NCBI GenBank assembly: GCA_041576165.1
Contig: JBFGLM010000055.1
Span: 1-28,820 of the forward strand
Length of the DNA stretch: 28,820 nucleotides
DNA from: Acidimicrobiia bacterium
Lineage (GTDB): Bacteria > Actinomycetota > Acidimicrobiia > Spongiisociales > Spongiisociaceae
Reading direction: 5' to 3'
This document shows positions 952 through 18,976 of this stretch, piece by piece. The number at the start of each line of letters is the position of its first letter. Positions within the stretch are counted from its first letter, which is position 1. Position numbers and translations under genes: made by a program. The notes under the pieces are model-generated. The model made no database searches. It had not been told where the DNA came from and saw only the letters and a program-made list of their open reading frames with translations.

Positions 952-1821
952 ATGACTGACACCGGCGTGCCGATCGTCGAGGTGGAAGACATCAAGCTGG
1001 CCTTCAAAGGTGTCGTCGCGGTCAACGAGGTCAGCTTCCACGTGAACGAGGGCGAGTTGTTCTCGATCATCGGTCCGAACGGAGCAGGGAAGACCTCGAT
1101 CTTCAACTGCTTGTCCGGTGTCTACAAACCCCAAGAGGGCGACATCCGGTGGCGGGGCGAGTCGATTCTCGCGCTGAAGCCCTTTCAGATCGCCGAGTTG
1201 GGGATGGGACGTACCTTCCAGAACATCGAGCTGTTCGAGCACATGACCGTGCTCGACAATCTGATGACCGGGCGTCACATCAGGATGAGCTCGGGGGTCA
1301 TTGCCAACGCGTTGCACTGGGGCAAGAGCCGCAAAGAAGAACTGGAGAACCGTAACCGGGTCGAGGACATCATCGACTTTCTCGAGATCGAGCAGTGGCG
1401 CAAGTACCCGGTTGGCCTGCTTCCCTACGGCATCCAGAAACGGGTGGAGCTGGGACGAGCGCTGGCTATGGATCCCCAGCTGTTGCTGCTCGACGAGCCC
1501 GTGGCCGGAATGAACCTCGAGGAAACGGAAGACATGGCCCGTTTCATTCTCGATATCCGGGAGGAACTGGGCATCTCGATGATCCTGGTGGAGCATGACA
1601 TGGGGCTGGTCATGGACATCGCCGACCGGGTGATGGTGCTCGACTTCGGCCAGAAGATCGCCGAAGGCGTACCGGCCGAAGTACAGCGAAACCCTGATGT
1701 GATTCGAGCGTATCTGGGTGAGGAGTTCGCTTCTCAGGAACTCCGAGAGGCGGAACGGGCACTGGAAGGCGACGCCATCGAGGCGGCGGAGCCGACCGGG
1801 ACTCCGGCCCCAGATAGCTAG
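952..1821 (+). CDS. livG: ABC transporter ATP-binding protein (LivG family)
   Basis: GPNGAGKT, RTFQN, LPYG signature, LLDEP, VEHDM, AYLG; RBS GGAGG at 942-946 before ATG 952. Confidence 0.9.
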   Translation: MTDTGVPIVEVEDIKLAFKGVVAVNEVSFHVNEGELFSIIGPNGAGKTSIFNCLSGVYKPQEGDIRWRGESILALKPFQIAELGMGRTFQNIELFEHMTVLDNLMTGRHIRMSSGVIANALHWGKSRKEELENRNRVEDIIDFLEIEQWRKYPVGLLPYGIQKRVELGRALAMDPQLLLLDEPVAGMNLEETEDMARFILDIREELGISMILVEHDMGLVMDIADRVMVLDFGQKIAEGVPAEVQRNPDVIRAYLGEEFASQELREAERALEGDAIEAAEPTGTPAPDS

Positions 1822-1999
1822 CCGGCGCCATCCGGCCGCGGACCGCCCCTCCCGCACAAGCCGGGTCTCAGCGGGGTGCCGCTTGTACCCTGACTGTCGC
1901 GCAATCGAGACTCGCTTCAAGCAGGGCGCGGGCGATGAGGGAGTAGGCGACGTGGCGCTAACCAGGCCGGTCGGGACTTTTTGGGGCCGGCTCCCTGCG

Positions 2000-3070
2000 A
2001 TGATCCCCCGGCCCGTGAAGGGCGGGGTTCGCAGCGGGTATGTGGCGCTCCTGGCCCTCGCGTTCGTCACCGCCTGCACGTCGACTACGGGTGGGCAGGC
2101 CGAGCCGGTGCCGGAGGCGCCGACCACGACTTCGAGCCTGGTGATTGAGCCAACCGCGACCACCCCACCTCCGCCGCGCCTGCTGGTCGACGTGGGTGTG
2201 GACCTGGAAAACGGTGTCATCATTGCGGCGGTGGTCATGCCGTCGGCGGCGGCCCTGGCAGGGCACCAGGCTTACTGGGCATCGGTGAACCTGGATCTCG
2301 GTGGGGTGGGCGGCGAGCTGGACGTGGAGCTCTTCGAGCGAGAAACCGCCGACGCCGCCTTCACGTCCAATGTGGCGGTGATCTCGCTCGACCAGGGAGC
2401 GGTCGAACCGGTCGGTCCGATCTTTGCGATGGCGCCCACCCAGACGATCGATTCGGTTGCGGCCGGCCGCACCCTCGATGCGACCCGACCGACGCTGGGA
2501 GCCGTGGTGTCGGCTGCCTCGCAGCTGGCCCTCGACGCAGATTTTGTTGCCGAAGGCACACTGGGGGTCGTGGCAGGAGCGTCCTGTCCGTTCGATCCGA
2601 TGACGTACCAGCTCACCGAGGGCGCCGGGGCTGACTTCGTTCTGGTGTGCGGGACCCCTGCGGAAGCCGTGGCGGCCCTGGCCGATATCGACGGCGTCGT
2701 GTTCCTCACCTACGAGGCCTGGTCGCCAGACATAGCCGCTGAACTGCCGGAAGACACCTACGTACTCGGGGCCGTACCTGAGCCGGGGACAGACGCGCCG
2801 GCGGCGGAGATTCTGGCGACGGTGGCCGATGAGCAGCCGTGGGACCCGGAATTCGTGCGCGGGTATACGGCAGCTTTGACCACCCATCTCGCGTTGGAGC
2901 GGGCGTACGCGGCGGGGGATCTCACCCGCGCCGGTGTGCAGACCGCCGCCCGCACCATGGATGACGCAGATCCGGGCTTTGGCCCGCGCGATTCGGTGAC
3001 GGTGGCGGTCCCCGACGAGGACAGCCCGAGCGGACTGCGCACCGTCGACCGCATCGATGCCGACCAATGA
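2000..3070 (+). CDS. Lipoprotein, probable divergent ABC substrate-binding protein (periplasmic binding protein type 1-like)
   Basis: Hydrophobic signal with lipobox VTAC, Thr/Pro linker, YWASVN..GGVGG and LERAYAAGDLTRAG segments reminiscent of Liv-type SBPs. Start uncertain (ATG 2000 or GTG 2015). Confidence 0.55.
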   Translation: MIPRPVKGGVRSGYVALLALAFVTACTSTTGGQAEPVPEAPTTTSSLVIEPTATTPPPPRLLVDVGVDLENGVIIAAVVMPSAAALAGHQAYWASVNLDLGGVGGELDVELFERETADAAFTSNVAVISLDQGAVEPVGPIFAMAPTQTIDSVAAGRTLDATRPTLGAVVSAASQLALDADFVAEGTLGVVAGASCPFDPMTYQLTEGAGADFVLVCGTPAEAVAALADIDGVVFLTYEAWSPDIAAELPEDTYVLGAVPEPGTDAPAAEILATVADEQPWDPEFVRGYTAALTTHLALERAYAAGDLTRAGVQTAARTMDDADPGFGPRDSVTVAVPDEDSPSGLRTVDRIDADQ

Positions 3071-3158: not shown

Positions 3159-4226
3159 ATGGACACCTCGACCCGCCTCCCCACCCCGGTAACGCAGTCC
3201 CAGCCCGTTCAGCGACATTTCCCGCGCTGGCCGGCTGCCCTGCTCGTAGGGCTCGTACTGACAGGTGCGCTGATCGTGGCCGCCTGGCAGGTGACCATTC
3301 CGTATTTCGCTCTCTCACCCGGCCCGGTTGAAGAAGTCGATGATCTGATCGAGATTCCGGGCGAGACAGTTTTCGACAGCACCGGGGGGCTGCTGATGCT
3401 CACCGTGTCGCTGCAAGAGGTCAATGTGTTCGAGTACACGCAGGGCTTGTTCGATCCGGCGATAGATCTGGTCGAACGTGAGGTCATCCGGCCTGCCGAT
3501 GTCTCCCCGGACCAGTTCCGTCGGGCCAATCGGGAGGCCATGCAGGACTCCAAGGACACTGCCATTGCGGTCGCGCTCGGTTACCTGGGTTACGACGTGA
3601 CGCTGCAGGGTGAGGGAGTCTATGTCGCCGCGGTCCTGGAAGACACCCCGGCCGAAGGCGCCCTGCGGGCGGGTGACGTGATCACAGAGGTCAACGGCGT
3701 GCCGGTCATGCTCAGAGATGACGGGATCGGCGAGATCGTCAAGAACAACATCGGCGATACGATCACCCTCAAGGTGGACCGGGACGGTGAGATTCTCGAT
3801 GTCGATGTACGGCTCATCGAGCACACCACCAATCCCGGCCAGCCGATGGTCGGGTTCGAGGCGCAAACACACAACGAGACGCTCGAGCTGCCCTTCGATG
3901 TGGACATCGACACCCAGAACATCGGCGGGCCCTCTGCCGGGCTCATGTACGCCTTGGCGATCATCGACCTGCTGTCCGAGGAGGACCTCACCGGCGGGGT
4001 CGTGGTCGCCGGCACCGACACGATCAACTCATCGGGTGATGTCGGCGCAATCGGTGGTGTCCGCCAGAAGGTGGTGGCGGCCGAGGCGGCTGGCGCGACT
4101 GTGATGCTGGTGCCGAGATCCAACCTCGATGAGGCCCAGACCGCGCCTTCCAACGGGATCGAGCTCATCCCGGTATCGACACTCGACGAGGCGATCCAGG
4201 CGCTCCAGCAGCGAGCGGCCGCCTGA
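3159..4226 (+). CDS. YlbL/SdrC family PDZ domain + Lon-like (S16) protease
   Basis: N-terminal TM then PY..SPGP, PDZ (TPAEGALRAGDVITEVNG), catalytic IGGPSAG and IGGVRQK. Confidence 0.9.
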   Translation: MDTSTRLPTPVTQSQPVQRHFPRWPAALLVGLVLTGALIVAAWQVTIPYFALSPGPVEEVDDLIEIPGETVFDSTGGLLMLTVSLQEVNVFEYTQGLFDPAIDLVEREVIRPADVSPDQFRRANREAMQDSKDTAIAVALGYLGYDVTLQGEGVYVAAVLEDTPAEGALRAGDVITEVNGVPVMLRDDGIGEIVKNNIGDTITLKVDRDGEILDVDVRLIEHTTNPGQPMVGFEAQTHNETLELPFDVDIDTQNIGGPSAGLMYALAIIDLLSEEDLTGGVVVAGTDTINSSGDVGAIGGVRQKVVAAEAAGATVMLVPRSNLDEAQTAPSNGIELIPVSTLDEAIQALQQRAAA

Positions 4227-4270
4227 CAACGGTGTGATTGCCGCGGCAAACGGCGGTATCGTTTGAGATC

Positions 4271-6271
4271 ATGGCTTCCCCGGGCGCGCAGGACGACATA
4301 ACCGCCGTCGATTTCAGCCGGGCTCTACGCGGCTACGACCCGGCCGAGGTTCGCGCGTATCTGGCTGATCTCGCGGAACGGGTTGAGGCACTCCAGCGAC
4401 AGCACGCGACGGCGCTCGCAAGCCTGGCGGAATACGGCGAACGTGATCGATCGGAACAAATCGACGAACTCACTGCGGACATCAACCGCATCCTCCACGC
4501 CGCCCAGAGCGCTGCGGAGAAGCTGACCGCTCGCACCGAGGCGGAGACCGTCGAGCTGTGCCTGAGCGCCGAACGTCAGGCCAATGAGACCGTCGCCACA
4601 GCCGAGGCCGACGCCTACGCCCTCCGCAAGGACGCGTGGGAAATGGCGGCCAAGTTGCTGGATGATGTGGTTTCCCATGTCGCCGACGTACGTAAGCAGG
4701 CCGACGCCGAGGCGCTCGAGATCATCGGCGAAGCAGAGCGCACTGCGCACCGGCGCCTGGCTGCCGCCCGCCGGGACGCCGAAAACCAGCTCCGGGTAGC
4801 CCGGCTCGAAGGTGAGCGCATCCGAGTGGACGCCCAGGGGGAACGCGACGAGCTGCTCGAGAACGCGCGTCTCGCCTCCGAAGCCGCCCAGGAGCGGACC
4901 CGGGCACTGGAGAAGAGGCGCGACGAGCTGCTGGCCGACATCGAGCGGCTGCAGCTGGAGGGTGTGCGGGACGCACCCGGCGATGTGGCATCGACGACGG
5001 TGAGGGTGGTCCGCAACCACGAGCCAGGGGTCGAGACGGCCGCGGAAGAGTCCTCGGATGCGGTGCGCATCATCGGCCCCCCTGCCAGCGCTCGCTGGGC
5101 GGACGGGACCGAGAACGTGCGCCTGGTCCAACCGCCGTCCAAAGACGACGTTGAGTTTCTGGACGGCGACAGCATTGCCGACGAGGTGCGCCGGCTGCGC
5201 GACGCGGGAGAAGCCGAATCAACCGCGGAAGATGGCGCCGCGGCGCCCCCGGTCCCCACCGGTCCACAACCTGACGCCGTACCGCCGCCGGTGGACCAGC
5301 AGGCAGACGAGGATTCCCCGGAGGAAACCCCCGCCGTCGAGCCGGCGCCGGCTGAGGTCGATCTGACAGATGGAATGGACGCAACGCTTCTAGCCGGGTC
5401 GGAGTCGGCGGGTGCGCCCGGCGACGACCAGCTGGTGGCCGGCCAGGAAACACCCGTGTCCGACGAGGAGACGGCCGAGATCGACGATCTGTTCAGCCAG
5501 CTCCGGCGGTCCAGGCCGGACCAGCCGCACCGACCGCCGCCGGTGGTGGAGATCGTGTCTGACCGGGTCGCCCCCGAGGACATGGGAACTGAGGTCTCGG
5601 AGGAAACCCCGTTAGAGGATCTCGTTCCGCCCGAGCCAGTTGATCCCCTCGAGATTCGCGACCGGCTGCTCCTGCCGATCACCAATCGAGTCCTACGGGC
5701 CGTGAAACGTCAGCTGAGCGACGGGCAGAACGTCGCGTTGGAAGGGCTGCGCCTTGACCCCGATGGATGGTCGCCGCAGTCGGACGAGTTTGTGGCGACA
5801 ATCGGGCCCGACTGCTCCATCCTGGAGAGCGAGGCTTTCGGAGCGGGTGCGGCCGCCGCAGCGGAGCTCCTCGGGAGCAATAACCCTCGGCCCAAAGCCG
5901 TGGGCCTGGATGGAAATGCCGCGGCCCGGCTGGCCCAGATGCTGGAGGACCAGGTCGTCGAGGCGTTGGATGAGGGGCGCCGGGCAGGGCACAACGTGCG
6001 TGACCTTTCCGCCACGGTGTCGCGCGTATATCGCGCGTGGCGGACAGATCACGCCGAGCGGGAGATCAGGTCTACCGCGACCGCCGCGTACCACCAGGGG
6101 ATGCGGGCGGCCTACGCCGAGGCCGGAGTCGACAAGCTCCGGCTGGTGATCGCCGGAGCCGGCTGCGTCGATTGCCGGGCCGCGGCCGAGCATCTGGTCG
6201 ACCCATCCGACCCGGCCGGTCCGCTGCCGCCGCTGCACGAACGGTGCTCCTGCACGGTCGTGCACAACTGA
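4271..6271 (+). CDS. DivIVA-domain coiled-coil protein with C-terminal phage Mu gpF (MuF)-like domain
   Basis: N-term DITAVDFSRALRGYDPAEVRAYL (DivIVA), long Ala/Glu/Arg coiled coil, acidic Pro-rich linker, C-term AYHQG..YAEAGV..GCVDC..PPLHERCSC. Confidence 0.8.
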   Translation: MASPGAQDDITAVDFSRALRGYDPAEVRAYLADLAERVEALQRQHATALASLAEYGERDRSEQIDELTADINRILHAAQSAAEKLTARTEAETVELCLSAERQANETVATAEADAYALRKDAWEMAAKLLDDVVSHVADVRKQADAEALEIIGEAERTAHRRLAAARRDAENQLRVARLEGERIRVDAQGERDELLENARLASEAAQERTRALEKRRDELLADIERLQLEGVRDAPGDVASTTVRVVRNHEPGVETAAEESSDAVRIIGPPASARWADGTENVRLVQPPSKDDVEFLDGDSIADEVRRLRDAGEAESTAEDGAAAPPVPTGPQPDAVPPPVDQQADEDSPEETPAVEPAPAEVDLTDGMDATLLAGSESAGAPGDDQLVAGQETPVSDEETAEIDDLFSQLRRSRPDQPHRPPPVVEIVSDRVAPEDMGTEVSEETPLEDLVPPEPVDPLEIRDRLLLPITNRVLRAVKRQLSDGQNVALEGLRLDPDGWSPQSDEFVATIGPDCSILESEAFGAGAAAAAELLGSNNPRPKAVGLDGNAAARLAQMLEDQVVEALDEGRRAGHNVRDLSATVSRVYRAWRTDHAEREIRSTATAAYHQGMRAAYAEAGVDKLRLVIAGAGCVDCRAAAEHLVDPSDPAGPLPPLHERCSCTVVHN

Positions 6272-6378
6272 ACACCGCCACCACACCGTCCTCGATCAAT
6301 AACGCCTGGCAGGCGAGGCTGTTCGCCGCTTAACGCTGTGGCTTCATAGAATGCGGGGCCGCATCCTTTGGTGGAATC

Positions 6379-9270
6379 ATGATTAATCAAGAGCCGTCTG
6401 AGTCAGCACCTCGGGTGCCGCGAGCTGGCGGTCGCCGTGGCCTGACGATCCTGATCGTGATCGTGCTGGCGCTCCTGCTGACCCTGCGAGGCATCGCAAC
6501 GCTCTGGACCGAGTTCCTGTGGTTCACCTCGGTCGGCGCCACGTCCGTGTGGGGCACCCTGCTGGCATCTCGCATCGCGCTGGCCGTGCTGGCGTCAGTC
6601 GTTGCATTCGGATTCGTGTGGGCCAATCTCATCCTCTCCGATCGCCTCTCGCCTCGCTTCCAGATTGTCGACCTGGGCGCCGAAGAGGAGCTGGTTGAAC
6701 GGTTCCAGGAGTGGGTCGAGCCCCGGGTGGGGAAGGTCCGGTTCGGCCTCGCCACACTGTTCGGCATCATGATCGGACTGGGGGCCTCCGCCTGGTGGGA
6801 GGACGCGCTGCTGTTCTTCAACCGGGAGTCGTTCGGCCAGGTCGACCCTGTCTTCAACCTCGATATCGGCTTCTACGTCTTCCAGTTGCCGTTCCTCCGC
6901 GACCTCTTCTCCTGGCTGTTCCAGCTGGTGGTCGTCACCACGCTGCTGGTGGCCGCGCTGCACTATCTCAATGGCGGAATCCGGCTGCGTCAGGGCCGCC
7001 GGCCGGATGTCTCCGACGGGGTCAAGGCCCATCTGTCGATCCTGCTGGCCGTCCTTGCGTTGCTCAAAGCCGGCGCCTACCGCTTGGACAGCTACGAGCT
7101 GCTGTACTCGGGCCGGGGTGCCGTGTTCGGTGCCTCGTTCACGGATGTGCGGGCCCACCTGCCGGCTCTGACGTTGCTGATCCTGATTTCGATCACCGCG
7201 GCAGTGCTGTTGCTGCTCAATCTGCGCCGCCGCGGTTGGACGCTGCCGGTGGTAGCCGGGGCGCTGTGGTTGGTCGTCTCGGTCATCGTCGGCGGCGTGA
7301 TACCGGCGCTGATCCAGCGTTTCCAGGTCCTGCCGAACGAGTTGAACCGCGAACGCGAGTTCATCCAGGACCACATCGAGTTCACTCTCGACGCATACGC
7401 GCTGGACGAAACGCGTCTTCGCACCGAGCAGTTCGCTGCCAACACGGAGCTGACCGCGAACGATCTCGCCGCCAACCAGGAGACAATCGACAACGTCAGG
7501 CTGTGGGACCCGGGCGTTCTCACCGCGACATATCAGCAGCTTCAGGAAATCCGGACCTACTACCAGTTGCCGAACGTGGACGTGGATCGCTACATGATCG
7601 ACGACCAATTGACGCAGGTCATGGTGGCGGCGCGGGAGCTGGACGGAGACGACCTACCGGCCGAAGGCTGGGTCAACGAGCGTCTCGTCTACACCCACGG
7701 TTTCGGGCAGGTCATCAGCCCCGCCAACGCCGCTAATCCGACGACCGGTGAGCCGGCGTTCCTCGTCCGAGATGTGCCGCCCCGCAGCACGGCTGACGAG
7801 CTGACGACCGAGCAACCCCGCATCTATTTCGGGGAGACGGCCGGCCGGGACGACTTCGTCATCGTGCGCACCCAACAGCCCGAGGTCGATTTCCCGGCAG
7901 GTGAGAGCGAAACCCAGGTCGTCCGCAACACATACGACGGAGCCGGGGGCGTGCCAATCGGTGATCTGCTGCGTCGGGCCGCCTTCGCGTTGCGTTACGG
8001 CGATCTCAATACCCTGATTTCGCCCGAGCTGACCGGCGAATCCCGGATGTTGATGGTCCGCAACATCGTCGAGCGCCTCGAACGCATCGCACCGCTGCTC
8101 CATGCTGACAACGACCCCTACCTCACCCTGGTCGATGGGCGACTGCTGTGGATCGTGGACCTCTACTCGACGTCCGATCGTTATCCGTATTCGCAGCCGG
8201 CCATCGACTCCCGACTTGCCACCACCTCTGGGCTGCCGCGCCGGTTCAACTACATCCGCAACTCGGTCAAGGCGGTGGTGGATGCCTACGACGGCACCAT
8301 GACCCTCTATGTGATCGACGACGAAGATCCGCTCGTGCGGGCATATTCGAACATCTTTCCGGACGTCTTCACGCCGGGCGATCAGATACCCGAGGAGATA
8401 CGCGAGCACCTGCGGTACCCAGAGGACATGTTCCGGGTGCAGAGCGATATGTGGGCGATCTATCACCAGCAGGACCCGGACGTGTGGTTCAACTCCGAGG
8501 ACATCTGGGACATACCCGCCGACCCATCTACGTCGGATCGGTTGGAGACGCTGCGGGGCGCGGCCACCGAACGCCCCACTATCCCTTATTACTTGTTGAT
8601 GAAGCTGCCGGGCGAGGATCAGCTCTCATATCTGGCGCTGCAGTCGTTCAACCCCGCCAACCGCCCCAACATGACGTCCTTCTTGGTGGCGCTCTCCGAT
8701 CCAGGCCGGTACGGAGAGATCATCAACTACCAGCTGCCTAGAGGGGCGTTGATCAACGGACCCGCCCAGGTGGGCGCTCGGATCAATCAGGACCCCGAGA
8801 TCAGTCAGCAATTCACCCTGCTGGGCCAGCAGGGCTCTGATGTGATCCAGGGCAACCTGTTGGTGGTCCCGATCGAGGAATCGATCGTCTACATCCAGCC
8901 GATATATCTCGTCGGTGAGCAGCTGCAACTTCCCGAGTTCAAACGGGTCGTGGTCGTATTCGGGGACCGATCACCGGTGATGCGCGAGACGCTCGACGAG
9001 TCGCTGTCTGTCGTGTTCGGGACCGCGCAGGAGCCGCCACCCGACGAAGGCGAGCAACCGGTCGAGCCGCCTGACGACGGTGTGCTCACCGTGCCCGAGA
9101 CAGTCGAAGAACTGGTCGTGGAAATCGACCGGCTCTTGACTGAGGCGAACGCCGCCCTGGCCCGGGCGGATCTGGGTGAATACCAACGTTTGGTCGAGGA
9201 GGCCCGAGCGCTGACTGACCAACTGCGAGAGCAGGTGGCGCCGGTCACCGAGGAGGCAACCGGCGCCTGA
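6379..9270 (+). CDS. UPF0182 family membrane protein
   Basis: Family motifs LWF, DPVFNLDIGFYVFQLPF, NVRLWD, DVDRY, YTHGFG, PRIYFGE, NYIRNSVKAVVDAYDG, HLRYP; about 9 N-terminal TM segments. Confidence 0.95.
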   Translation: MINQEPSESAPRVPRAGGRRGLTILIVIVLALLLTLRGIATLWTEFLWFTSVGATSVWGTLLASRIALAVLASVVAFGFVWANLILSDRLSPRFQIVDLGAEEELVERFQEWVEPRVGKVRFGLATLFGIMIGLGASAWWEDALLFFNRESFGQVDPVFNLDIGFYVFQLPFLRDLFSWLFQLVVVTTLLVAALHYLNGGIRLRQGRRPDVSDGVKAHLSILLAVLALLKAGAYRLDSYELLYSGRGAVFGASFTDVRAHLPALTLLILISITAAVLLLLNLRRRGWTLPVVAGALWLVVSVIVGGVIPALIQRFQVLPNELNREREFIQDHIEFTLDAYALDETRLRTEQFAANTELTANDLAANQETIDNVRLWDPGVLTATYQQLQEIRTYYQLPNVDVDRYMIDDQLTQVMVAARELDGDDLPAEGWVNERLVYTHGFGQVISPANAANPTTGEPAFLVRDVPPRSTADELTTEQPRIYFGETAGRDDFVIVRTQQPEVDFPAGESETQVVRNTYDGAGGVPIGDLLRRAAFALRYGDLNTLISPELTGESRMLMVRNIVERLERIAPLLHADNDPYLTLVDGRLLWIVDLYSTSDRYPYSQPAIDSRLATTSGLPRRFNYIRNSVKAVVDAYDGTMTLYVIDDEDPLVRAYSNIFPDVFTPGDQIPEEIREHLRYPEDMFRVQSDMWAIYHQQDPDVWFNSEDIWDIPADPSTSDRLETLRGAATERPTIPYYLLMKLPGEDQLSYLALQSFNPANRPNMTSFLVALSDPGRYGEIINYQLPRGALINGPAQVGARINQDPEISQQFTLLGQQGSDVIQGNLLVVPIEESIVYIQPIYLVGEQLQLPEFKRVVVVFGDRSPVMRETLDESLSVVFGTAQEPPPDEGEQPVEPPDDGVLTVPETVEELVVEIDRLLTEANAALARADLGEYQRLVEEARALTDQLREQVAPVTEEATGA

Positions 9271-9764: not shown

Positions 9765-9910
9765 GCCCAACTCCTTGTTTAGATGCGTGCGGCGCATGGC
9801 CGCTGTTTGCGATGTTCGATCAGACGTTCGGCGTGTTACAGAGGTTCCCGACTTGCCCACCTGCGTGCCCCGGCGCGGGTGACGTGGGCGAAGCCTCTAG
9901 CCTGGAGGTG

Positions 9911-10762
9911 ATGCCACTACTCGAAATCGACGATCTGGGGGAGCTGACCGCTCCAGCACTGGTAGTGGCATTCGAGGGTTGGGTCAACGCCGGCTCGGCC
10001 GGTACCACGGCCGCAGAACATCTGGCGGGCGACAGCCGCGTGGTCGGCCGGGCCGATTCGGATGGTCTGTACGACTACCGGGCGGTGCGGCCCACAGCCG
10101 ACTTTCTCCACGGGGTACTCGAGGAGATCAGCTACCCGGAGGTGACGCTGCGGCATCGCAACCTCGGCGGGCGCGACGTCCTGATCCTCGCCGGGATCGA
10201 GCCGAACTGGAACTGGCGGGCGTTGGGCCGCGAGGTTTCCCTGCACGCGGTGCGGCTGGGCGTGGTGGAACACATATCGCTGGGCGGAATCCCGTGGGCG
10301 ACACCCCACACCCGGTTGACGTCGGTGATCATGACGGCTTCCCAGCATGACGTTCTGCCCGAGGATCCCAACCGGCCCCAGGGCCTCCTGCGGGTGCCGG
10401 CGTCGGCGACCTCTGCGATCGAGCACGCGGTCGCCTCCCAGGGCATCCCCACCCGGGGGTTCTGGGCCCGGGTCCCGCAATATGTGGGCGCGACATATCT
10501 GCCGGCGGCGGTAGCGTTGATCGAGCGGCTGTCGACCCAGCTCGGCGTCAGCGTGCCGTACGGCACGATCGTGGAGGAGGCGGCCGCGCAGCGGAGCCGC
10601 CTCGATGAAATCATGGCCACCCGACCCGAGGTCCAGGCGCTGGTCAGCCAGCTGGAAGCGCTGAGCGACGAGGCCGAAACGTCCGGAGAGGAACTGGCGG
10701 CCGAAATCGAGCGCTTCTTGCAACAGCAACCTGGGAGTGAGCCCGATCTCGGGTCCGAATGA
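9911..10762 (+). CDS. PAC2 family (proteasome assembly chaperone-like) protein
   Basis: AFEGWVNAG, YDYRAVRP, GIEPNWNW, PHTR, WARVPQY, ELAAEIERFL; RBS GGAGG 9904-9908. Confidence 0.9.
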   Translation: MPLLEIDDLGELTAPALVVAFEGWVNAGSAGTTAAEHLAGDSRVVGRADSDGLYDYRAVRPTADFLHGVLEEISYPEVTLRHRNLGGRDVLILAGIEPNWNWRALGREVSLHAVRLGVVEHISLGGIPWATPHTRLTSVIMTASQHDVLPEDPNRPQGLLRVPASATSAIEHAVASQGIPTRGFWARVPQYVGATYLPAAVALIERLSTQLGVSVPYGTIVEEAAAQRSRLDEIMATRPEVQALVSQLEALSDEAETSGEELAAEIERFLQQQPGSEPDLGSE

Positions 10763-10815: not shown

Positions 10816-10889
<74 letters not shown>

Positions 10890-10894
10890 CCGAT

Positions 10895-10925
10895 AGCCCC
10901 GGTCAGCAACCTGCTGACCGGGGCT
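10895..10925. terminator. Strong hairpin between tRNA and convergent integrase pseudogene
   Basis: AGCCCCGGTCAGCA-acc-TGCTGACCGGGGCT, perfect 14-bp stem; no long U tract. Confidence 0.7.
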
Positions 10926-10943
10926 GCTACGGTTTACTGGCAC

Positions 10944-10977
10944 CCTTTTACCGTCGCTTCCCCCGGATCTTCTACCG
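10944..10977 (-). repeat. Left pair of CGGTARAAG motifs (putative integrase arm sites)
   Basis: CCTTTTACCG 10944-53 and CTTCTACCG 10969-77 are reverse complements of the motifs at 12147-12167. Confidence 0.55.
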
Positions 10978-12110
10978 GCCGGCGGCGATCAGGCTTTCGA
11001 AGACGCGAGCGGCTTCGGCCTGCGTGCCGGGCAGCACGTGCTGGTGAGTGTCGATGGTGAACGCCGGGTTCCCGTGCCGGAGCCGCTCCGACACAACCTT
11101 GACGGGCACCCCGGCCTTGATGAGCAGCGTGCCGTGGGTGTGGCGGACGTCGTGAAGACGGACCTTGGGAACCCCGGCTCGGGCGACGATCCGCTCGAAG
11201 GCCTGCGAGATGGAATGAGGGTGGATCGGGTTGCCCTCGACGTCGGCGAACACCCAACCCGTCGGTTCTATGCCCACAGCTCTTCGCTTCGACGCCTGCC
11301 TCGCCTTCCAGGCGGCCAAGATTGCCACGGTGGTGGGATCGAGGTCGATCGCCCGCCTCGAGTTGCCGGTCTTGCCACGCGACTCGTGCAGTTCGTAACC
11401 GATGGAGACGAGGCCTCGGTTCATGGAGATTGTTGCGGCGTCGAGTTGACGTCGTCCCATTGCAGTCCGAGGAGCTCGCTGCGGCGGAGCCCGGTGTTGG
11501 CGAGTAGCCACAAAGCGGGGAACAGCCTGTGGCCGGCCGCCTCACGGAGAAATGCCCGCAGTTCAATGGCTGTCCACGCTTGCGGTTCCACTTTGGGAAT
11601 CGACCGCACCTTGGGGCGTGGGCTACCAGCGCGACGTTGCGGGTCACGATTCCACGTCGGACGGCATCGCTTAGAGGACCGCGGATGATGAGATGGATCT
11701 CCAACACCGTCTTCGGCGCCAACTGCCGTTTCCCGCTCTGCGGATGCAGCTTCTGGTCGTAGAGCCTCTCTAGATGGTGGGGTAAGAGTCGACGGATCGG
11801 GATGCTCCCCAGAGAAGGGAGGACGTGCAGCTCAACTTTGCAGCGATACCCGTCCCAGGTGCTGTGTGCCAGCTCCACCTTCTTGCCCGGTAGCCACCGC
11901 GCCATCAGATAGGCACCGAACGTGAGCGACCGAGCGTCGTCCTGTCGGCCGTTCAACTCCGCGGCCAAGCTCCGACGCCAGCCACTCGGCGTCCTCCCGG
12001 TTGGTCCCGGCCGGGTGCCACCGCCGCCGCTCCTTCCCAGTCGCCGGGTCCAGGCCCTCGTAGATGACTGCCTACCAACGATCACCCTTCTGCGCCACAT
12101 AGCCCTTCAT
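10972..12110 (-). pseudogene. Tyrosine integrase pseudogene (tRNA-fMet associated)
   Basis: Starts MKGYVAQKGDRW then TAG (12072-74); frameshifts near 11970, 11608, 11445; spliced frames give TGLRRSELLGL, GKT, LHDVRHTH, SERLRH, TIDTHQHV (catalytic Tyr position is His). Confidence 0.9.
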
Positions 12111-12146
12111 CGTCCTTCTCCTCTCTGGGCTCCGAGGGTCGGAACC

Positions 12147-12167
12147 CGGTAAAAGGATCGGTAGAAG
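12147..12167 (+). repeat. Right pair of CGGTARAAG motifs
   Basis: CGGTAAAAGG 12147-56 and CGGTAGAAG 12159-67, starts 12 bp apart, just upstream of the integrase start. Confidence 0.55.
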
Positions 12168-12198
12168 TGATTGGCTGGTGCGGCACCGCCCCCGGCGT

Positions 12199-12990
12199 CT
12201 ACAAGGATTCTTTGTTGTCGGCTGTGAGCACCAGTGGGCAGCCCCGAAACGGGTGGTCGACAACGACCATACGCTGGTCGTAGACGGAGGTGAGGAGATC
12301 GGCTTGGAGTACTTGTCGCGGGTCGCCATCGGCCACCACGGCCCCTTCGCTCATGACGAGGATTCTGTTGGCATGCACCGCGGCGGCGTTGAGGTCGTGG
12401 AGCACGGCGACGACGGTCCTGTCTTCCGCGAGCACGGCGGCAAGGTTCATGATTCTTTCTTGGTGGGCTACGTCGAGTGCGGTGGTGGGTTCGTCGAGGA
12501 GGATGATCGGTGTTGCTTGGGCGATGACCCGAGCTAGGGACACCCGGGTCTGTTCACCTCTTGACAGCGTGGTGTAGGTGCGGCTGGCAAAACGTGTCGT
12601 GTCGGTCTGAGCCATGGCGTCGGCGATGACGGCGGCATCTTGTTCACGGGTGTTGGCTCCGTCTCGTCGGTGGGGGAACCGTCCCATAGCGATCACCTGG
12701 GAGGCGGTGTAGGGGATGTCGATGGGTTCGCGCTGGGTGAGGATGGAGCGTTCGAGGGCGAGGTCGCCGGGCAGGGCCCGAGCGGTGTCGATGCCGTTGA
12801 TCAACACTTTGCCTTCTGTTGCTTGGAGGTCTCCCGAGAGCAGGTTGAGGAGCGTGGACTTGCCCGCCCCGTTGGGCCCGATGACGGCGATGAGCTCTCC
12901 CGGTGCGACCTCGAGGTCGACGTCGGAGATCAGGGTGGCGCCTTTCACTCGATAGGTGGCGGCGTTGGCGACGATGGTGGGCTCAGGCAT
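12199..12990 (-). CDS. hmuV: Heme/iron-chelate ABC transporter ATP-binding protein (HmuV-like)
   Basis: GPNGAGKST, MGRFPH, LLDEPT.ALD, VLHDLN; signature reads LSRGE. Confidence 0.8.
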   Translation of the reverse strand: MPEPTIVANAATYRVKGATLISDVDLEVAPGELIAVIGPNGAGKSTLLNLLSGDLQATEGKVLINGIDTARALPGDLALERSILTQREPIDIPYTASQVIAMGRFPHRRDGANTREQDAAVIADAMAQTDTTRFASRTYTTLSRGEQTRVSLARVIAQATPIILLDEPTTALDVAHQERIMNLAAVLAEDRTVVAVLHDLNAAAVHANRILVMSEGAVVADGDPRQVLQADLLTSVYDQRMVVVDHPFRGCPLVLTADNKESL

Positions 12991-14023
12991 CACGACGCCT
13001 GGTGAGTAACCAGAGAAACACCGGGCCGCCGACGGCGGCGGTGACGAGACCTACGGGGATCTCTATGGGTTGGATGGCGAGTCGTGCCACCAGGTCGGCG
13101 GCGGCGACGAAGAGTGCTCCGCCGGCTAGTGACACCACGAGTAGATGACGGTGGAGTGGGCCGGTGAATCGGATCACGATGAAGGGGACGAGCAGTCCAA
13201 CGAAGGCGATCACACCGGCGGCTCCGACTGTGGCACCGACCGCGGCTCCGACGGCGATGAGGAGGATTGTGCGCACCAGTTCGACGTCGATGCCGAGGTG
13301 CCGGGCGTCGCTTTCGCCGAGGCGGAAGATGTCGAGGATGCGAGCGGAGGCCAGCATCACGATGGCGGCGATTGCGGCGAAGACGATGACGGTGCCGAAG
13401 GCTCGCCAGGTTGATCCGGCCAGACTGCCGAGGAGCCAGAACTCGATAGGGGGGACGGTGGCGCGGTCGGCGGCGAACACGACGAAGCCCACCCAGGCAC
13501 TCAGCGCGGCACCGAGTGCAACCCCGGAGAGGATGATTCGGGTGGGGTCGATCGAAGCCCTACGAGAGAGACGACGGATCGCAAACGCGGTGACCACGCC
13601 GGCGGCGACGCCGCCGGCGATCGCACCCTGAACTCCTCCGGCGGATGATCCGATGGCGGCCCCGATCGCAGCGCCGGGGCCGATGCCGAGCAACTGGGGG
13701 TCGGCCAGGTTGTTGCGGAGCAGTCCCTGCAGCACCCCGCCAGTGAGAGAGAGGGCGGCTCCGACAGTGAAGGCGAGCAGCATCCGGGGCATGCGGAGCC
13801 CCCACACCACCGCTTCGGCCTGGGCCGACGGTTCGGTGAAGACGCTGAGTCCGAGCTTGCGGGCGAGCACACCCAGTACCTCACCGGCAGGCACCGACAC
13901 CGCGCCGAGGGACAAAGCGCCCCACGCCACGGCGAGGAGAAGGAGCCCGACCACCGGACCCGCCCAGCGCCGTCGGTTGGCGAACGGGTCGGCGTCGTGT
14001 AGGGATTCGGTGGAGTCGGTCAA
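12983..14023 (-). CDS. hmuU: FecCD/HmuU family ABC permease
   Basis: LRMPR, LQGLLRNNLADP, FWLLGSL, LGE..ARHLG, GVIAFVGL.VP, EIPVGLVTA..GGP.F; overlaps both neighbours. Confidence 0.85.
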   Translation of the reverse strand: MTDSTESLHDADPFANRRRWAGPVVGLLLLAVAWGALSLGAVSVPAGEVLGVLARKLGLSVFTEPSAQAEAVVWGLRMPRMLLAFTVGAALSLTGGVLQGLLRNNLADPQLLGIGPGAAIGAAIGSSAGGVQGAIAGGVAAGVVTAFAIRRLSRRASIDPTRIILSGVALGAALSAWVGFVVFAADRATVPPIEFWLLGSLAGSTWRAFGTVIVFAAIAAIVMLASARILDIFRLGESDARHLGIDVELVRTILLIAVGAAVGATVGAAGVIAFVGLLVPFIVIRFTGPLHRHLLVVSLAGGALFVAAADLVARLAIQPIEIPVGLVTAAVGGPVFLWLLTRRRDA

Positions 14024-15042
14024 TCTCCGATGCCCGGATACAGGTCCCTAACGAAATCGTCTAGGGCCTGGCCGGTGCGCGGACCGAGGTTGAAGAAGTA
14101 GGCCTCGTCATAGGCGAGGAAAGCGTCATCCTGAGCCGCGGGGGTATCGGCCACGCCTGGTAGGGCGAGGAAGGCTTCGATTCCGCCGAGCGCTTCGAGT
14201 CCCGCCTCGGGCAGAACGATCACGTCGGGGGCGGCTGCCACCAGCGCTTCTGGTGTCAGCGGGGCGGGGCCGAACACTCCGGATTCGACCCCGGCGTCGA
14301 CGGCGCCGGCGCCTTCTATAATCGCCTGGGTTGCGCTACCGGCTCCGAACAGGAACACGACCTGAGGGCCACGCACATAGACGAACGCCACCCGGGGATC
14401 CGAGTCGTCGCCCGCTGCGAGGTCACGGGCCTCGTCGATCTCTCCCATGACCCGCTCCGCCAACGTAGCGCCCGCATCGGGCACGTCGAGGATCTCAGCG
14501 ACTTGGTTGATCTTGGTCTCTACGCCGTCCAGGGTTGTCTGGGTTTCCAGGATCACCACCGGGATGCCGGCACCACGCAGCTGCTCGATGGCCTCCGGTG
14601 GCGCAACTTGGGTGTCGCCGATCACCAGCGTGGGTTCGAAGCGAAGCACCGCTTCGGCGGTCAACTGCTGGGCGAATCCGACCGTCTGACCTTGGTCGTT
14701 GAGTGCAGCCGCCTCCGGTGGATAGGTGGTGGTTACGTCCACACCTACGACGTTGTCGCCGAGCCCGAGCTCGAAGATGATCTCGGTCAGGTCACCGTTG
14801 AGCGAGACGATCCGCGAGATGTCGGTGATCGTGGTCTCGACACCATCTGCGCCGACGAAGATCCGTCCCTCGGATTCGGTTGTTGATGTCGCCGCAGTCG
14901 AGGTTGTCGTCGGTGGGGTAGTCGAGGTCATCGTGGTTTCCGCTGCAGCGACCGAGGTGGTCGTCTCCGCCGTTTCTCCTCCGCACGCCACCGCGGTCAT
15001 GGCAGTGGCCATGGCGAGCGCTATCAGGGTCTTGGATCTCAT
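14020..15042 (-). CDS. HmuT/BtuF-fold substrate-binding lipoprotein
   Basis: Lipobox AVAC, Thr-rich linker, RIVSL, VVGVD.TTTYP, LTPEALVAAAPDVI, LGPR; ATG 15042 downstream of GAGG (GTG 15054 alternative). Confidence 0.85.
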   Translation of the reverse strand: MRSKTLIALAMATAMTAVACGGETAETTTSVAAAETTMTSTTPPTTTSTAATSTTESEGRIFVGADGVETTITDISRIVSLNGDLTEIIFELGLGDNVVGVDVTTTYPPEAAALNDQGQTVGFAQQLTAEAVLRFEPTLVIGDTQVAPPEAIEQLRGAGIPVVILETQTTLDGVETKINQVAEILDVPDAGATLAERVMGEIDEARDLAAGDDSDPRVAFVYVRGPQVVFLFGAGSATQAIIEGAGAVDAGVESGVFGPAPLTPEALVAAAPDVIVLPEAGLEALGGIEAFLALPGVADTPAAQDDAFLAYDEAYFFNLGPRTGQALDDFVRDLYPGIGD

Positions 15043-15055
15043 TTGATGGTTCACC

Positions 15056-15790
15056 TCAGGTCGTTTCGGTTGGGTAGGCGGAGACCGCCCTCTGTGTTTC
15101 GTGTATGGAGGCAGCCCGGTCGCCTGCGATCACCCGGTAGCCGGCCCAGATCAGCAGCAGCCCGAAGAGCTCGGTCACATAGAGCACCTCGACCATCCCG
15201 GCTCGGGCGAAAGATCCCCCGATGCCAGGAAGGATCGCTCCCGCCGCGATCAACAGGTTCCCATTGACCCTCGACCCGGCACCGCCTCGCCGCCAGTACT
15301 TCCACGCGGACCAGATGGCGCCGCCGATCAGGAACACGACCGCATACAGGTTCACCAGCGGGGAGAACAGCCTCACCCACTGCCAGGCCATCACCTCGCC
15401 TGACAGCCGGTTCGGCTCCACCAAGTCGTAGAGGAGCGGAGTGGCGATGACAAACGCGGATGCGACGGCAACATACGTCACCAGCGCCACCGCCAAACGA
15501 TCGGCGACACGTCTCGGCAACAGCAGGTACACGGTGCCTTGAGCCAGCGGTCCCGCCCCTAGCAGAGCCCCGGCGATGTACCAGGAGCGGAAGACCGGCT
15601 CGTTCCAACCGAAGATCGTCGTCAAGGCCTCAGTGAGCGTGCCCAGCCCATAGAGACCAACGCCGATCATCCACCACATCACGTATCGAGCCGATGGATT
15701 GCGCCGCCAATGCCGCCACAGAACCCGGAAGAACGCGGCCGCAACCACCGTCGTGACCACCGGCAGATAGTGGATCAGATTCGACGACAA
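15056..15790 (-). CDS. Hypothetical integral membrane protein (about 7 TM), first gene of the ABC operon
   Basis: Seven hydrophobic stretches; stop lies 13 bp before the SBP start; TTG start uncertain. Confidence 0.8.
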   Translation of the reverse strand: MSSNLIHYLPVVTTVVAAAFFRVLWRHWRRNPSARYVMWWMIGVGLYGLGTLTEALTTIFGWNEPVFRSWYIAGALLGAGPLAQGTVYLLLPRRVADRLAVALVTYVAVASAFVIATPLLYDLVEPNRLSGEVMAWQWVRLFSPLVNLYAVVFLIGGAIWSAWKYWRRGGAGSRVNGNLLIAAGAILPGIGGSFARAGMVEVLYVTELFGLLLIWAGYRVIAGDRAASIHETQRAVSAYPTETT

Positions 15791-15838
15791 ACACGCATCC
15801 CACGCCGCATGGGAACGGCACTCAAACCCACTCTCAGA

Positions 15839-15876
15839 CCGACACCAAGTCGGATCGATTCCGACACGATGTCGGA
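15839..15876. promoter_or_regulatory. Tandem palindromic operator-like array CCGAC-N5-GTCGG x2
   Basis: CCGAC-ACCAA-GTCGG (15839-53) and TCCGACA-CGA-TGTCGGA (15860-76), period 22 bp, 50-85 bp upstream of the operon. Confidence 0.6.
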
Positions 15877-16194
15877 CTCACCAACCGGGAACGGAGCTCA
15901 TCCGAACCGGCATCCATCGCGCGAGCGAGATGCGAGGTCGTCGATTCACAGTGCAGCCCCAGCAACATTCTCCGGGTGGATCTCGATGTCCCGCTCGTCT
16001 ACGCGGGCGTATGACGTATCTGCGAGTGCGACGAGTGCAGCTGGTTCAGGCGCCACCCGCCGACTGCAGCCGAGGTTCACGCCGCAAGCGACTGCGGTGC
16101 TCTGCCGCACCGCTTCGGAGGCGCTCGCGGGGACGATACGCAATGATGTGGCCCCGATTCACGACGTCGCACGTGGACGTTGGGCCCGCTCCGT

Positions 16195-16833
16195 GGGCCT
16201 GTCAGTTAAACGGTGGAAGTGGTCTGGCCTGACAAGCTGAACAATCGTTTGGCTAGTGAGGACGGATGATGACAGTGCATGATGATGCGGTGACGAGCCC
16301 ACCCGAAGACGACAATCAGAATCCGCGGTCCGGGGTCGAACCGGAGATCGCCCAGCGGCTGGTGGAACAAGCCAAAGCCGAGGGGGTGGATCTGGTCGGC
16401 CCGGGTGGTTTGTTGTCGGATCTGACCAAACAGGTGCTCGAGACCGGCCTCGAGTGTGGAGGCCTTGCGAGCAAGGTGGAAGAACACCTCGGCTATCCGA
16501 AACATGACCCTTCGGGCCGCGAGGCCGGGTCGAACTCCCGCAACGGTGTCCGAACCAAGACGGTGACGACCGAGGTGGGTCCGGTCGAGGTGGAGGTGCC
16601 GCGGGACCGAGACGGCACGTTCGATCCCAAAACGGTCCGCAAACGACAACGCCGGCTGGTGGGGGTCGACGCGATGGTGATCTCGCTGGTAGCCAAAGGC
16701 CTGACCACCGGCGAAGTGCAGGCGTATCTGGCCGAGACCTATGGCACCGACATCTCGAGGGAGACGATCTCGAAGATCACCGACCGGATCCTCGACGAGC
16801 TTTCGGACTGGCTGTGTCGGCCGTTGGACCGGA
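16195..16833 (+). mobile_element. IS256-family element, 5' part only (transposase from 16266, truncated)
   Basis: LVGPGGLL..LTK.VLE, HLGY, NSRNG, VPRDRDGTF.P, GLTT, ISKITD; breaks after RPLDR before the first catalytic Asp; probable left IR starting GGGCCTGTCAG at 16195. Confidence 0.85.
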
Positions 16834-17778
16834 GGCGGTTTCTACCGGTGGTTGCGAACTATGACGTGTTGTCGATTGCGATCAAGTCTGCCAGGACTCT
16901 TTCGGGTGTGCGGTCTCCGAGGATGAGGCGGGGGCGTTGGTTGAGTTCGCGGGCGACGTTGTTGAGGTCGTCGCGGCTGTGTGTGGCGAGGTTGGTCCGT
17001 TTGGGGAAGTATTGGCGGAGGAGGCCGTTGGTGTTCTCGTTGGTGGCTCGCTGCCAAGGGGCGTGAGGGTCACAGAAGAAGATCTCGACACGGATCGGGC
17101 ACTGATCTCCTCGTGAAGGGTGAGTTCTCTTCCCTGATCCCAGGTCAGTGTCTTGCGAACAGGTGAGGGGATTTCGAGGAGGCGCTCGATGAGCGCTTTG
17201 CGGACCTGAGGGGCTTTGTAGCCGTCCGGCAGGTGGAGGAGGATCACGAATCGGCTGAACCGTTCGACCAGGGTGCCGATCGCTGAGTGCATGTGCCGAC
17301 CGATGATCAGGTCGCCTTCCCAGTGGCCAGGAGTCTGACGTTCGTCAACCTCGGCTGGCCGCTGGTCGAGGAGCTTCATGTTCTTGATCTTGTTCTTGGT
17401 GGGGACCCCGCGCCGTTGCGGCTTGCGCCGACCCCGACCGGTGCGAAGCTTGCCTTCGGTGGGTCCAAGCACCCCAGCGAACAGCGCCTGGTAGATCGTC
17501 TCAGGACAGGCATGCATCGTCTCGTCGTCAGGGAAGGTCCGTTTCAGGAACCGTGAGATCTGCGCAGGTGACCATTTCAGATCGAGCTTCGCAGTGATGG
17601 CCAGGTGCAGGCGAGATCCTTGCTGGATTCGCTTCTCCTTGGGGCGTTGCCGCTGCAGGACAGCCCGGTTGTGTGCCCACCACGGCTGATAGGTGCCATC
17701 GGGTTTGCTGTTGCGCCGGATCTCCCGATACACGGTCTGGAAGCTCTTACCGATGCCCACCGCAATGGTCTTCACCGG
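16834..17778 (-). mobile_element. IS30-family element, 5'-truncated, frameshifted transposase
   Basis: TVYREIRRN, WSPAQIS, ETIYQ, GHWEGDLIIG, TLVER, LTWDQGRE; one-base loss near 17090, then FCDPHAPWQRATNENTNGLLRQYFPK; stop 16859-61; probable right end GGCGGTTTCTA at 16834. Confidence 0.9.
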
Positions 17779-17780
17779 TG

Positions 17781-18231
17781 TTGAGGCGGCAATGGGGTGG
17801 CTGGGCGGACACCTTCATGGGTTCGATGTTGGTGGCGCCAGATACGGGACGCCGGATCCGGATTGGGGGATCGACGAGTTGGACGAGCATCGATTCCGGC
17901 TTGAGCACGTGCTTCCAAAGGTCGGGATGAGGATGAGGCGGGACTACGACTTCGGCGACGGCTGGGAGCACGAGGTGCTGGTGGAGGCGGTCAGTACTCC
18001 TGAGCGTGGGACTGAGTGTCCGCGGTGCCTGGCCGGGCGACGGGCCTGCCCGCCTGAGGACTGTGGCGGTCCGTGGGGGTATGCCTTTTTGTTGGATGCT
18101 TTGGCCAATCCTGATCATCCCGAGCATCGCAGCTTCGGGAGTGGGCGCCACCGGGCTTCGACGCCGCCCGGTTTGACCTGGCGGGGACGAACCACGCGAT
18201 ACGGTCGCCGAGGCCCATAGAGGGCTGGTGA
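17781..18231 (+). pseudogene. Plasmid pRiA4b ORF-3 family protein, N-truncated and frameshifted
   Basis: AAMGW..HLHGF, YDFGDGWEH, CLAGRRACPPEDCGGPWGY; frameshift near 18128 then LREWAPPGFDAARFD..GW stop at 18231. Confidence 0.85.
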
Positions 18232-18639
18232 CGTCGAGTGCCTGGTCGGGTCTGAGCTGGAACCCGTCACTGATCTCGGCGAGTCAAGGCACGGCATGAG
18301 GATGTCCACTGGGAAACGCTTCGACACCAGAAGTGGCTGGGCGAATGCCCTCCACCGTGACGAGAATCGTCGATGAGCTTGCCCCTACTCGGGCCGATGC
18401 GTGACGGTCAGGGTCGGCCGTCGCGTTGGGCCAAGGGCCGCTTTGGAAGCGGCTCGAGAAAGTCAGATTCCTAGCTCCATATTGGGGGCCGAGACCTCAT
18501 CGCAAAGCGTCCGATCGGCACATCGTTTGGCGACGAGAGCTCTCCTTCGGCTAACAGTGGGGCCTCAGGCGTCTAGGCCCGTTCTCCCGCACGTCGGCCG
18601 GAGCCGCCGTGGTGCCGATCGGTGGGCGTCGTCGAGGGG

Positions 18640-18976
18640 CAACCGTGAGCGACGCCTCGAGGCTGGGGAATACGTGACCGTACGCGCCGAGAGTCACTTG
18701 GATCGTGCTGTGGCCGAGGCGTTCCATGATCGCCCTTGGATGGGCTCCCTCGGCGCTGAGCGTGGCCGTGTAGCTATGGCGAAGGTCGTGGAATCTCGTT
18801 TGCGGCGGAAGACCTGCACGATGAACCGCTGACTTGAAGTGGCGAGCGTAGAAGTTGGAGTGCCGGAGGGGCCCGCCTCTCGACGACGTGAACACGAAGT
18901 CGTGGCCGGCCTTGCTGGCCAGGTGCGAGGTCAGTTCAGAAACCAGCGCTTGGGGGATCGGAACGGAGCGGGCTCG
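18640..18976 (-). pseudogene. C-terminal fragment of a second tyrosine integrase
   Basis: RSVPIP, FVFTS.RGGPLR..NF, RFHDLRHS, ERLGHS.IQVT...YGHVF; no recognisable N-terminal half. Boundaries approximate. Confidence 0.85.

Follow-up and report, generated by a model that had tools for sequence, protein, structure and literature searches.

The stretch of DNA analysed here, hereafter the window, is a 28,820-nucleotide contig (JBFGLM010000055.1, positions 1 to 28,820 of the forward strand) from the Acidimicrobiia bacterium assembly GCA_041576165.1 (Actinomycetota; family Spongiisociaceae). It contains a gene, termed here the DivIVA-MuF gene, whose product joins an N-terminal DivIVA domain to a C-terminal domain resembling MuF, the module that tailed phages use as a head-morphogenesis or minor-capsid protein, with SPP1 gp7 and Mu gpF as type examples. 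MuF proteins are among the commonest phage head proteins, and their molecular role is poorly understood. An earlier note on this DNA, made from the sequence alone, had described such a fusion in a setting free of phage genes and proposed a domesticated phage module that serves as a polar DNA tether or as a sensor or decoy for phage portals. With high confidence, we find that a MuF-like domain has been domesticated here on a second DivIVA paralogue, encoded between genes for a membrane-anchored PDZ-Lon protease and a UPF0182 membrane protein (Table 1).

The gene occupies a single open reading frame (ORF) that runs from 4238 to 6271 on the forward strand. Translation from the ATG at 4271, chosen because the N-terminus then aligns with the N-termini of homologues, gives 666 amino acids and a stop codon. 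The motifs quoted in the earlier note lie where it had placed them (FSRALRGYD at 4313, WRTDHAE at 6038, GCVDC at 6161 and PPLHERCSC at 6227), and its layout of DivIVA domain, presumed coiled coil, acidic linker and MuF-like C-terminus is borne out by the Pfam and NCBIfam DivIVA models together with AlphaFold2 (AF2) predictions and fold comparison. Within residues 8-55 is a lipid-binding-type N-terminal module, predicted by AF2 as strands and a helix (residues 7-55), with an L19-R20 loop in ALRGYD; we take this pair to stand where Bacillus subtilis DivIVA has its membrane-inserting hydrophobic-Arg pair, and homologues carry F, M, W, V or L followed by R at this position. In the full-length AF2 monomer model, built with 60 homologues, the module is followed by one helix (59-227; predicted local distance difference test score, pLDDT, mostly >90), a disordered stretch (228-458) interrupted by helices at 299-317 and 399-412, and a compact domain (459-666). 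A weak Scy/Wag31-type profile match falls within the long helix. The linker carries three conserved short motifs: W276 of the first is almost invariant in a 60-sequence alignment, A303 and E305 of the second are invariant in the homologue alignment, and F408, L411 and R412 of the third are invariant in 60 sequences. This third motif resembles an LD-type amphipathic docking helix. The genome also has a canonical DivIVA, encoded on a different contig, which makes the fusion gene a second DivIVA paralogue.

Table 1. Features of the window and of the loci compared with it; positions refer to the window unless another contig or locus is named.
Feature	Position	Strand	Basis or remark
DivIVA and MuF-like fusion gene, 666 amino acids	4271-6271	+	ORF list, translation, homologue alignment
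DivIVA domain match, residues 8-125	4292-4645	+	PF05103 49 bits (cut-off 28; 52.2 bits in whole-genome scan), TIGR03544 (DivIVA domain) 36.3 bits (cut-off 22)
Long predicted helix, residues 59-227, presumed coiled-coil oligomerisation stalk	4445-4951	+	full-length AF2, block pLDDT 81-96
Acidic, Pro-rich disordered linker, residues 228-458, net charge -40	4952-5644	+	pLDDT <50 over most of it; composition
Linker motif 1, W..(x)..VR(I/V)(I/V)P; here WADGTENVRLV, residues 275-285	5093-5125	+	alignment
Linker motif 2, predicted helix DxxxAxEVRRLR, residues 299-317	5165-5221	+	alignment; AF2 pLDDT about 82
Linker motif 3, amphipathic helix (L/I)DxLFxxLR, residues 399-412	5465-5506	+	alignment; AF2 helix
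MuF-like domain, residues 459-666, four long helices then a small Cys/His knuckle	5645-6268	+	AF2, BFVD, ESM Atlas
Most conserved block SRVYRAWRTDHAER, residues 584-597	6020-6061	+	counts in 160 representatives
Putative Zn knuckle, C632-x2-C635 ... H656-x2-C659-x-C661	6164-6253	+	counts in 160 representatives
Upstream neighbour, membrane-anchored PDZ + Lon_C (S16) protease	3159-4226	+	PDZ_2 2.4e-16, Lon_C 9.7e-12
Downstream neighbour, UPF0182 polytopic membrane protein	6379-9270	+	PF03699 3e-275
Canonical DivIVA of the same genome	other contig (C2), 134818-135207		101 bits, 285-residue frame; whole-genome scan
MuF-less gene of genus g7, locus L109	4173-5255		ahead of UPF0182
MuF-less gene of genus g7, locus L112	about 4037-5200		ahead of UPF0182
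MuF-less DivIVA-only gene, Egibacteraceae, 231 residues, locus L141	5013-5708		ahead of UPF0182
MuF-less DivIVA-only gene, Euzebya, 210 residues, locus L147	5013-5645		ahead of UPF0182
Two branched-chain-type ATP-binding cassette (ABC) ATPase genes	2-895, 883-1821
tRNA-Met	10816-10891
Island: integrase	10934-12100	-
Island: FecCD-type ABC transporter with binding protein	12199-15054	-
Island: Mutator transposase fragment	16266-17066
Island: rve transposase	16882-17775	-
Island: PRiA4_ORF3-like gene	17693-18220
Island: truncated second integrase	18551-19204	-

The identity of the tail is carried mainly by its predicted fold. Modelled alone, residues 459-666 reach a pLDDT of 95.8 and a predicted template-modelling score (pTM) of 0.90. 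When this model was searched against BFVD, a comparison in which the structures on both sides are predicted, 65 matches at E<=1e-3 were found across the whole 208 amino acids with a probability of 1.00. All named matches are minor capsid, head morphogenesis, portal, maturation protease or MuF-fusion proteins, and the best of them is a portal-MuF fusion (template-modelling score over the query, TMq, 0.80). The order of the motifs (an Arg/Thr/Glu helix, AY(H/N)xG, CxxC and PPxHxxCxC) is also common to phage MuF and this tail. A feature search of the ESM Atlas, used as a lead only, returned a viral top cluster (score 0.94) with PF04233 on 73% of its members. Among solved structures, a profile search gave nothing below E 0.5, Foldseek on the PDB gave nothing at E<=1e-3, and a wide search with VIA-align gave just generic helical bundles (Z<=7.5); no solved MuF structure was found for comparison.

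Sequence comparison points in the same direction at lower scores. Four of five PHROG matches are head-and-packaging families (E 4e-5 to 0.013), with minor head proteins at 4e-5 to 5.5e-4. A tblastn search of 50,697 phage records returned 12 records, of which nine, from six of eight phages, are annotated as portal or head protein, the best being a portal-MuF fusion of Arthrobacter phage Sonali (6e-4, 97% coverage). The family profile aligned by hhalign with three canonical Acidimicrobiia MuFs over 88 columns at E 2.7e-4, and orthologues in other Acidimicrobiia families are more canonical, with PF04233 scores of up to 28.4 bits. Across 151 class genomes, MuF rises above the PF04233 cut-off in only 3, and 8 of the 14 places found with PF04233 at E<=0.01 are the DivIVA-MuF gene itself. 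Three results count against the assignment: the curated MuF thresholds are missed, both for TIGR01641 (phage SPP1 gp7; 21.3 bits against a cut-off of 39.65, E 2.8e-4, model positions 3-106 of 109) and for PF04233 (13.7 bits against 29.6); PF04233 is reached singly at E<=0.1 by only two of 31 family members; and the hhalign probability against the three canonical MuFs is only 41.7%. Because these profile matches are weak and below the cut-offs while the fold match is strong, we describe the tail, on the strength of predicted models, as a MuF-like homologue at the level of the superfamily, outside the curated families, and not as a Pfam member. The match to Phage_Mu_F/SPP1 gp7 claimed earlier therefore stands for fold and motif and fails at the thresholds of the two family models.

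To place the conserved residues of the tail, motif counts were made in 160 representatives drawn from a family search with 389 matches at E<=1e-3. R588, W590 and R591 are present in all 160, D593 in 154, and E596 and R597 in 153 each. The Cys/His cluster is largely, though not universally, retained, which goes against the lack of conservation in homologs that the earlier note had named as a refutation: C632 is found in 146 representatives, C635 in 147, C659 in 148, C661 in 120 and H656 in 104, and the complete CCHCC pattern in 91. Judged from this pattern, the knuckle would bind Zn. Two features of the family count against the scaffold reading set out below: about nine representatives stop ahead of the CxxC and so have no knuckle, and H656 or C661 is substituted in others. 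Genera g21, g34 and g39 match the domain profile just to about position 187-195 of 239, which corresponds to the helical bundle without the Cys/His knuckle. The canonical MuFs found with PF04233 end in CRC(A/T), and CxxC is present in one of the three. In the protein studied here, only five residues follow the CxC, which leaves no room for a toxin on this C-terminal MuF, as had been stated.

The gene is class-wide, vertically inherited and single copy. It is present in 32 of 41 relatives, a tally that takes in two unpublished genomes. Of 201 genomes of the class, 135 carry it, among them 133 of the 161 that are of high quality, and it is found in 90 of 103 genera, with orthologues in Ilumatobacter (Ilumatobacteraceae) as one example. 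Most genomes have one copy; two copies occur in two genomes (G068 and G131). Outside the class, the profile finds it in 13 other sampled Actinomycetota genomes; the overall tally, with one unpublished genome included, is 35 of 301. Nitriliruptorales, Euzebyales and Egibacteraceae are named among the out-of-class loci, for which a single protein query found nothing and a three-sequence alignment query worked, and the Nitriliruptoria-type proteins likewise begin with DivIVA and finish with MuF.

The strongest clue, absent from the earlier note, is an invariant neighbourhood with UPF0182 and the PDZ-Lon protease. Synteny was sampled in 80 named Acidimicrobiia loci, which are kin and not independent samples. 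In 72 of the 74 loci with room for it, UPF0182 is the gene immediately downstream and has the same orientation, and the PDZ + Lon_C protease gene lies upstream on the same strand in all 63 loci with room, with median gaps between matches of 86 bp and 92 bp, respectively. In Nitriliruptoria-type loci, UPF0182 comes next on the same strand in 18 of 21 cases, but no protease gene adjoins the pair, so that what the two classes share is the order DivIVA(-MuF), then UPF0182. As the gene is single copy, syntenic and class-wide, the term 'domesticated' used earlier fits it well, and because this core gene is consistently beside the UPF0182 gene, it appears that a phage part was captured long ago and put to work in the cell envelope. 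In the window, a PAC2-family gene (proteasome-assembly-chaperone-like, E 2.5e-40) directly follows UPF0182 at 9812-10762 (+).

The two flanking genes form a known pair of Actinomycetota, UPF0182 (MSMEG_1959/Rv3193c) and PDZ-Lon (Rv3194c-type), so that the same two envelope genes here enclose the DivIVA-MuF gene. The mycobacterial genes Rv3193c and Rv3194c are presumably directly adjacent; within this analysis a directly adjacent pair was seen only in one streamlined genome (G044). According to the accessible part of a preprint (bioRxiv 10.1101/2025.11.14.688347), UPF0182 knock-down phenotypes correlate with those of ftsH and yccA in three actinobacteria, those of M. smegmatis include responses to polymyxin B and macrolides, a role of UPF0182 in membrane-protein quality control is proposed, and that part describes no DivIVA or MuF partner.

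We tentatively favour the view that the protein is a specialised DivIVA paralogue with an anciently captured MuF-type C-terminus, forming a membrane-tethered scaffold that works with the UPF0182 quality-control module. On this proposal, the DivIVA module and the presumed coiled coil would hold an oligomer against the inner side of the cytoplasmic membrane, preferentially where the membrane is curved, as at poles and septa. The 230-residue acidic linker would act both as a flexible tether and, through its three conserved short motifs, as a docking strip. The MuF domain would be a Zn-stabilised protein-binding head that docks onto a cellular partner in the way that the phage version docks onto the portal oligomer, and the best candidate for this partner may be the adjacently encoded module for membrane-protein quality control that centres on UPF0182. 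Functional coupling of the DivIVA-MuF protein to UPF0182, taken by itself, is possible and still somewhat doubtful. The more specific idea that a phage head-assembly adaptor, acquired early in the evolution of the actinobacteria, was redirected to a cellular target, so that MuF docks, by analogy with the portal, on a ring- or dome-shaped membrane complex (a UPF0182 oligomer and/or FtsH) and places quality control at poles and septa, is quite unlikely. A complex prediction between UPF0182 residues 1-335 and residues 396-666 of the DivIVA-MuF protein scored 0.02 and 0.01 against a mark of 0.32, which counts neither way.

Several observations weigh against a scaffold that works with UPF0182. From predicted topology the catalytic parts of both neighbours would be extracytoplasmic, so that contact would be made only via short cytoplasmic loops of UPF0182, whose cytoplasmic segments, as read from its sequence, would be about residues 1-21, 86-120 and 196-212. 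Natural variants add to these difficulties. In genus g7, which belongs to the window's own family, the MuF domain is found in none of 8 genomes; Egibacteraceae and Euzebya have forms without it as well; the streamlined genome G044 has PDZ-Lon and then directly UPF0182, with no DivIVA-MuF gene between them; family f15 has the gene in 0 of 7 genomes, one of which carries UPF0182 in a different neighbourhood; and in the rest of Actinomycetota, UPF0182 occurs without the DivIVA-MuF gene.

These variants also inform on the parts of the protein. The g7 form is a 360-residue DivIVA + linker gene between the protease gene and UPF0182; it keeps linker motif 1 and has the LFxxLR helix as its C-terminus. 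The scaffold of DivIVA and linker is thus more persistent than the MuF head, and because several lineages keep just DivIVA + linker beside UPF0182, the head is accessory and not the core of the scaffold. Retention of the motif 3 helix as the C-terminus of the MuF-less g7 protein means that the target of this helix is probably not the MuF domain. Family f16, with genomes of 1.1 Mb, has the gene in 0 of 47, and there UPF0182 comes straight after the protease gene; streamlined genomes lack the DivIVA-MuF gene. UPF0182 was still present in 5 of 5 checked genomes, and its presence in genomes lacking the gene means that UPF0182 does not need the DivIVA-MuF gene.

Of the alternatives to a UPF0182-associated scaffold, the one that survives best, though we regard it as unlikely, is that the protein is a general cell-division or polar-growth DivIVA paralogue, like SepIVA or GpsB, in which MuF is an extra oligomerisation or self-docking module, for example one that binds the protein's own LD-like linker helix, and the gene order with UPF0182 is merely historical. 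It accords with a second DivIVA existing beside the canonical one, with a MuF domain that is dispensable in several lineages, with the conserved (L/I)DxLFxxLR helix just ahead of the helical bundle, and with the occurrence of UPF0182 without the DivIVA-MuF gene. However, the adjacency of DivIVA and UPF0182, with gaps of ~90 bp, is kept in two classes even where other neighbours differ; the linker helix persists in proteins that have lost MuF, which means that its target is probably a different one; and the invariant surface-type residues R588, W590 and R591, with D593, suggest a conserved external partner.

The two functions proposed in the earlier note fare less well. DivIVA proteins anchor chromosome-binding partners in other bacteria, and a polar DNA or nucleoid tether would have MuF bind DNA while DivIVA fixes it to the pole. 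A paper listed by Jamet et al., 2017 (PMC5576092) as reference 32 calls SPP1 gp7 a DNA-binding protein in its title. Against this stand the acidity of the MuF domain (isoelectric point 5.5, net charge -6; core 552-666, net -2) and of the whole protein (net -63), as well as a neighbourhood of envelope proteins with no par or chromosome-segregation genes, and we consider a DNA tether improbable. An anti-phage sensor or decoy, in which a cellular MuF would capture phage portals, on entry or during assembly, and so stop heads from forming, appears less probable still, at a very low level. Phage MuF proteins do bind the portal, according to the accessible text of PMC5576092, and the closest sequence matches of the tail are actinophage portal-MuF fusions, but neither the DivIVA-MuF protein nor either neighbour matches a PADLOC-DB 2.0 family at E<=0.01. 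Nor does the gene resemble defence genes, which are patchy and carried on islands: it is core and single copy, its synteny is fixed, it is found in 90 of 103 genera, and it lies outside the integrase-bearing island of the window, which starts 4.5 kb away behind a tRNA-Met. Taken together, the earlier interpretation holds for architecture, setting and domestication, and the jobs that it proposed are unsupported by the context.

Finally, a prophage remnant, or an assembly chimera joining a DivIVA gene to a phage gene, can be dismissed as having a negligible chance of being correct: the source assembly is fragmented (161 contigs, 7.5% contamination) and none of the public contigs compared spans the whole gene, but the same fusion recurs in the 135 class genomes, several one-contig chromosomes included, and in the 80 named Acidimicrobiia loci, hundreds of genomes share the architecture, near-identical public contigs from the runs of three studies tile 3650-6670 (the best may be the source sample), none of the 26 other window ORFs falls in a head, packaging, portal, terminase or tail PHROG category, as the phage-free setting described earlier implied, and the whole-genome scan found no PF04233 candidate besides the DivIVA-MuF gene.

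Elsewhere in the window, the tRNA-Met is followed by an integrated island, the two together spanning 10816-19204, beyond UPF0182 and the PAC2-family gene, with the island's start 4.5 kb downstream of the DivIVA-MuF gene; a PHROG scan of the window ORFs found no phage structural genes in it. At the other end, the two ABC ATPase genes are followed by a 450-residue ORF (1718-3070, +) with no Pfam family, which may be the transporter's binding protein.

Compared with known systems, the protein shares with phage MuF/SPP1 gp7 (PF04233, TIGR01641) the fold of the whole 208-residue domain and the motif order, and differs in that it is encoded by a vertically inherited, single-copy chromosomal gene with neither portal nor terminase nor capsid genes close by. 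Here the domain is C-terminal on a cytoskeletal-type protein, whereas in phages it stands alone, is fused to a portal or protease, or is N-terminal to a toxin. In the accessible portions of two accounts (PMC5576092; Iyer et al., 2017, PMC5512222), MuF proteins are phage head components that bind the portal and the only settings described for them are phages and prophages, together with the toxin or polyvalent fusions of these. In MuF polymorphic toxins and polyvalent proteins, too, MuF is fused to another module, but there it is N-terminal, the toxin or enzyme is C-terminal, and the genes lie within late-gene modules of (pro)phages; here MuF is C-terminal, its partner is DivIVA, and there is neither a toxin nor a prophage. 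The word 'DivIVA' does not occur in the accessible text of PMC5576092. With DivIVA/Wag31, SepIVA and GpsB, the protein has in common an N-terminal DivIVA domain above the cut-offs, the hydrophobic-Arg loop and a long predicted helical stalk, and, unlike them, it is a second copy with a 230-residue acidic linker and a MuF domain, located beside UPF0182 and not in a cell-division cluster.

Both domains are known, and neither their fusion nor a class-wide cellular MuF was found in the searchable literature. By title and abstract, with subscription journals and supplements outside the search, we found no publication that joins DivIVA with MuF or describes a cellular MuF, and none on DivIVA in Acidimicrobiia. 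PF28068.1 is precomputed on the DivIVA-MuF protein and on 7 of 12 homologues, so that some portion of the protein may already have a family entry.

If true, a class-wide, vertically inherited cellular MuF on a DivIVA scaffold would be a clear takeover of a virion part, and it would allow the binding partners of the MuF fold to be sought away from phages. The MuF-less and knuckle-less forms, together with the genomes that lack the gene, are natural comparisons for this question. UPF0182, in turn, is a membrane protein conserved in all actinobacteria, and its link to FtsH-dependent quality control, drawn in the preprint cited above, is recent; the DivIVA-MuF gene is a candidate for its cytoplasmic partner in two deep-branching classes. 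Were portal-like docking to prove true, it would be the first cellular use of MuF and would provide the enigmatic UPF0182 family with a cytoplasmic partner.

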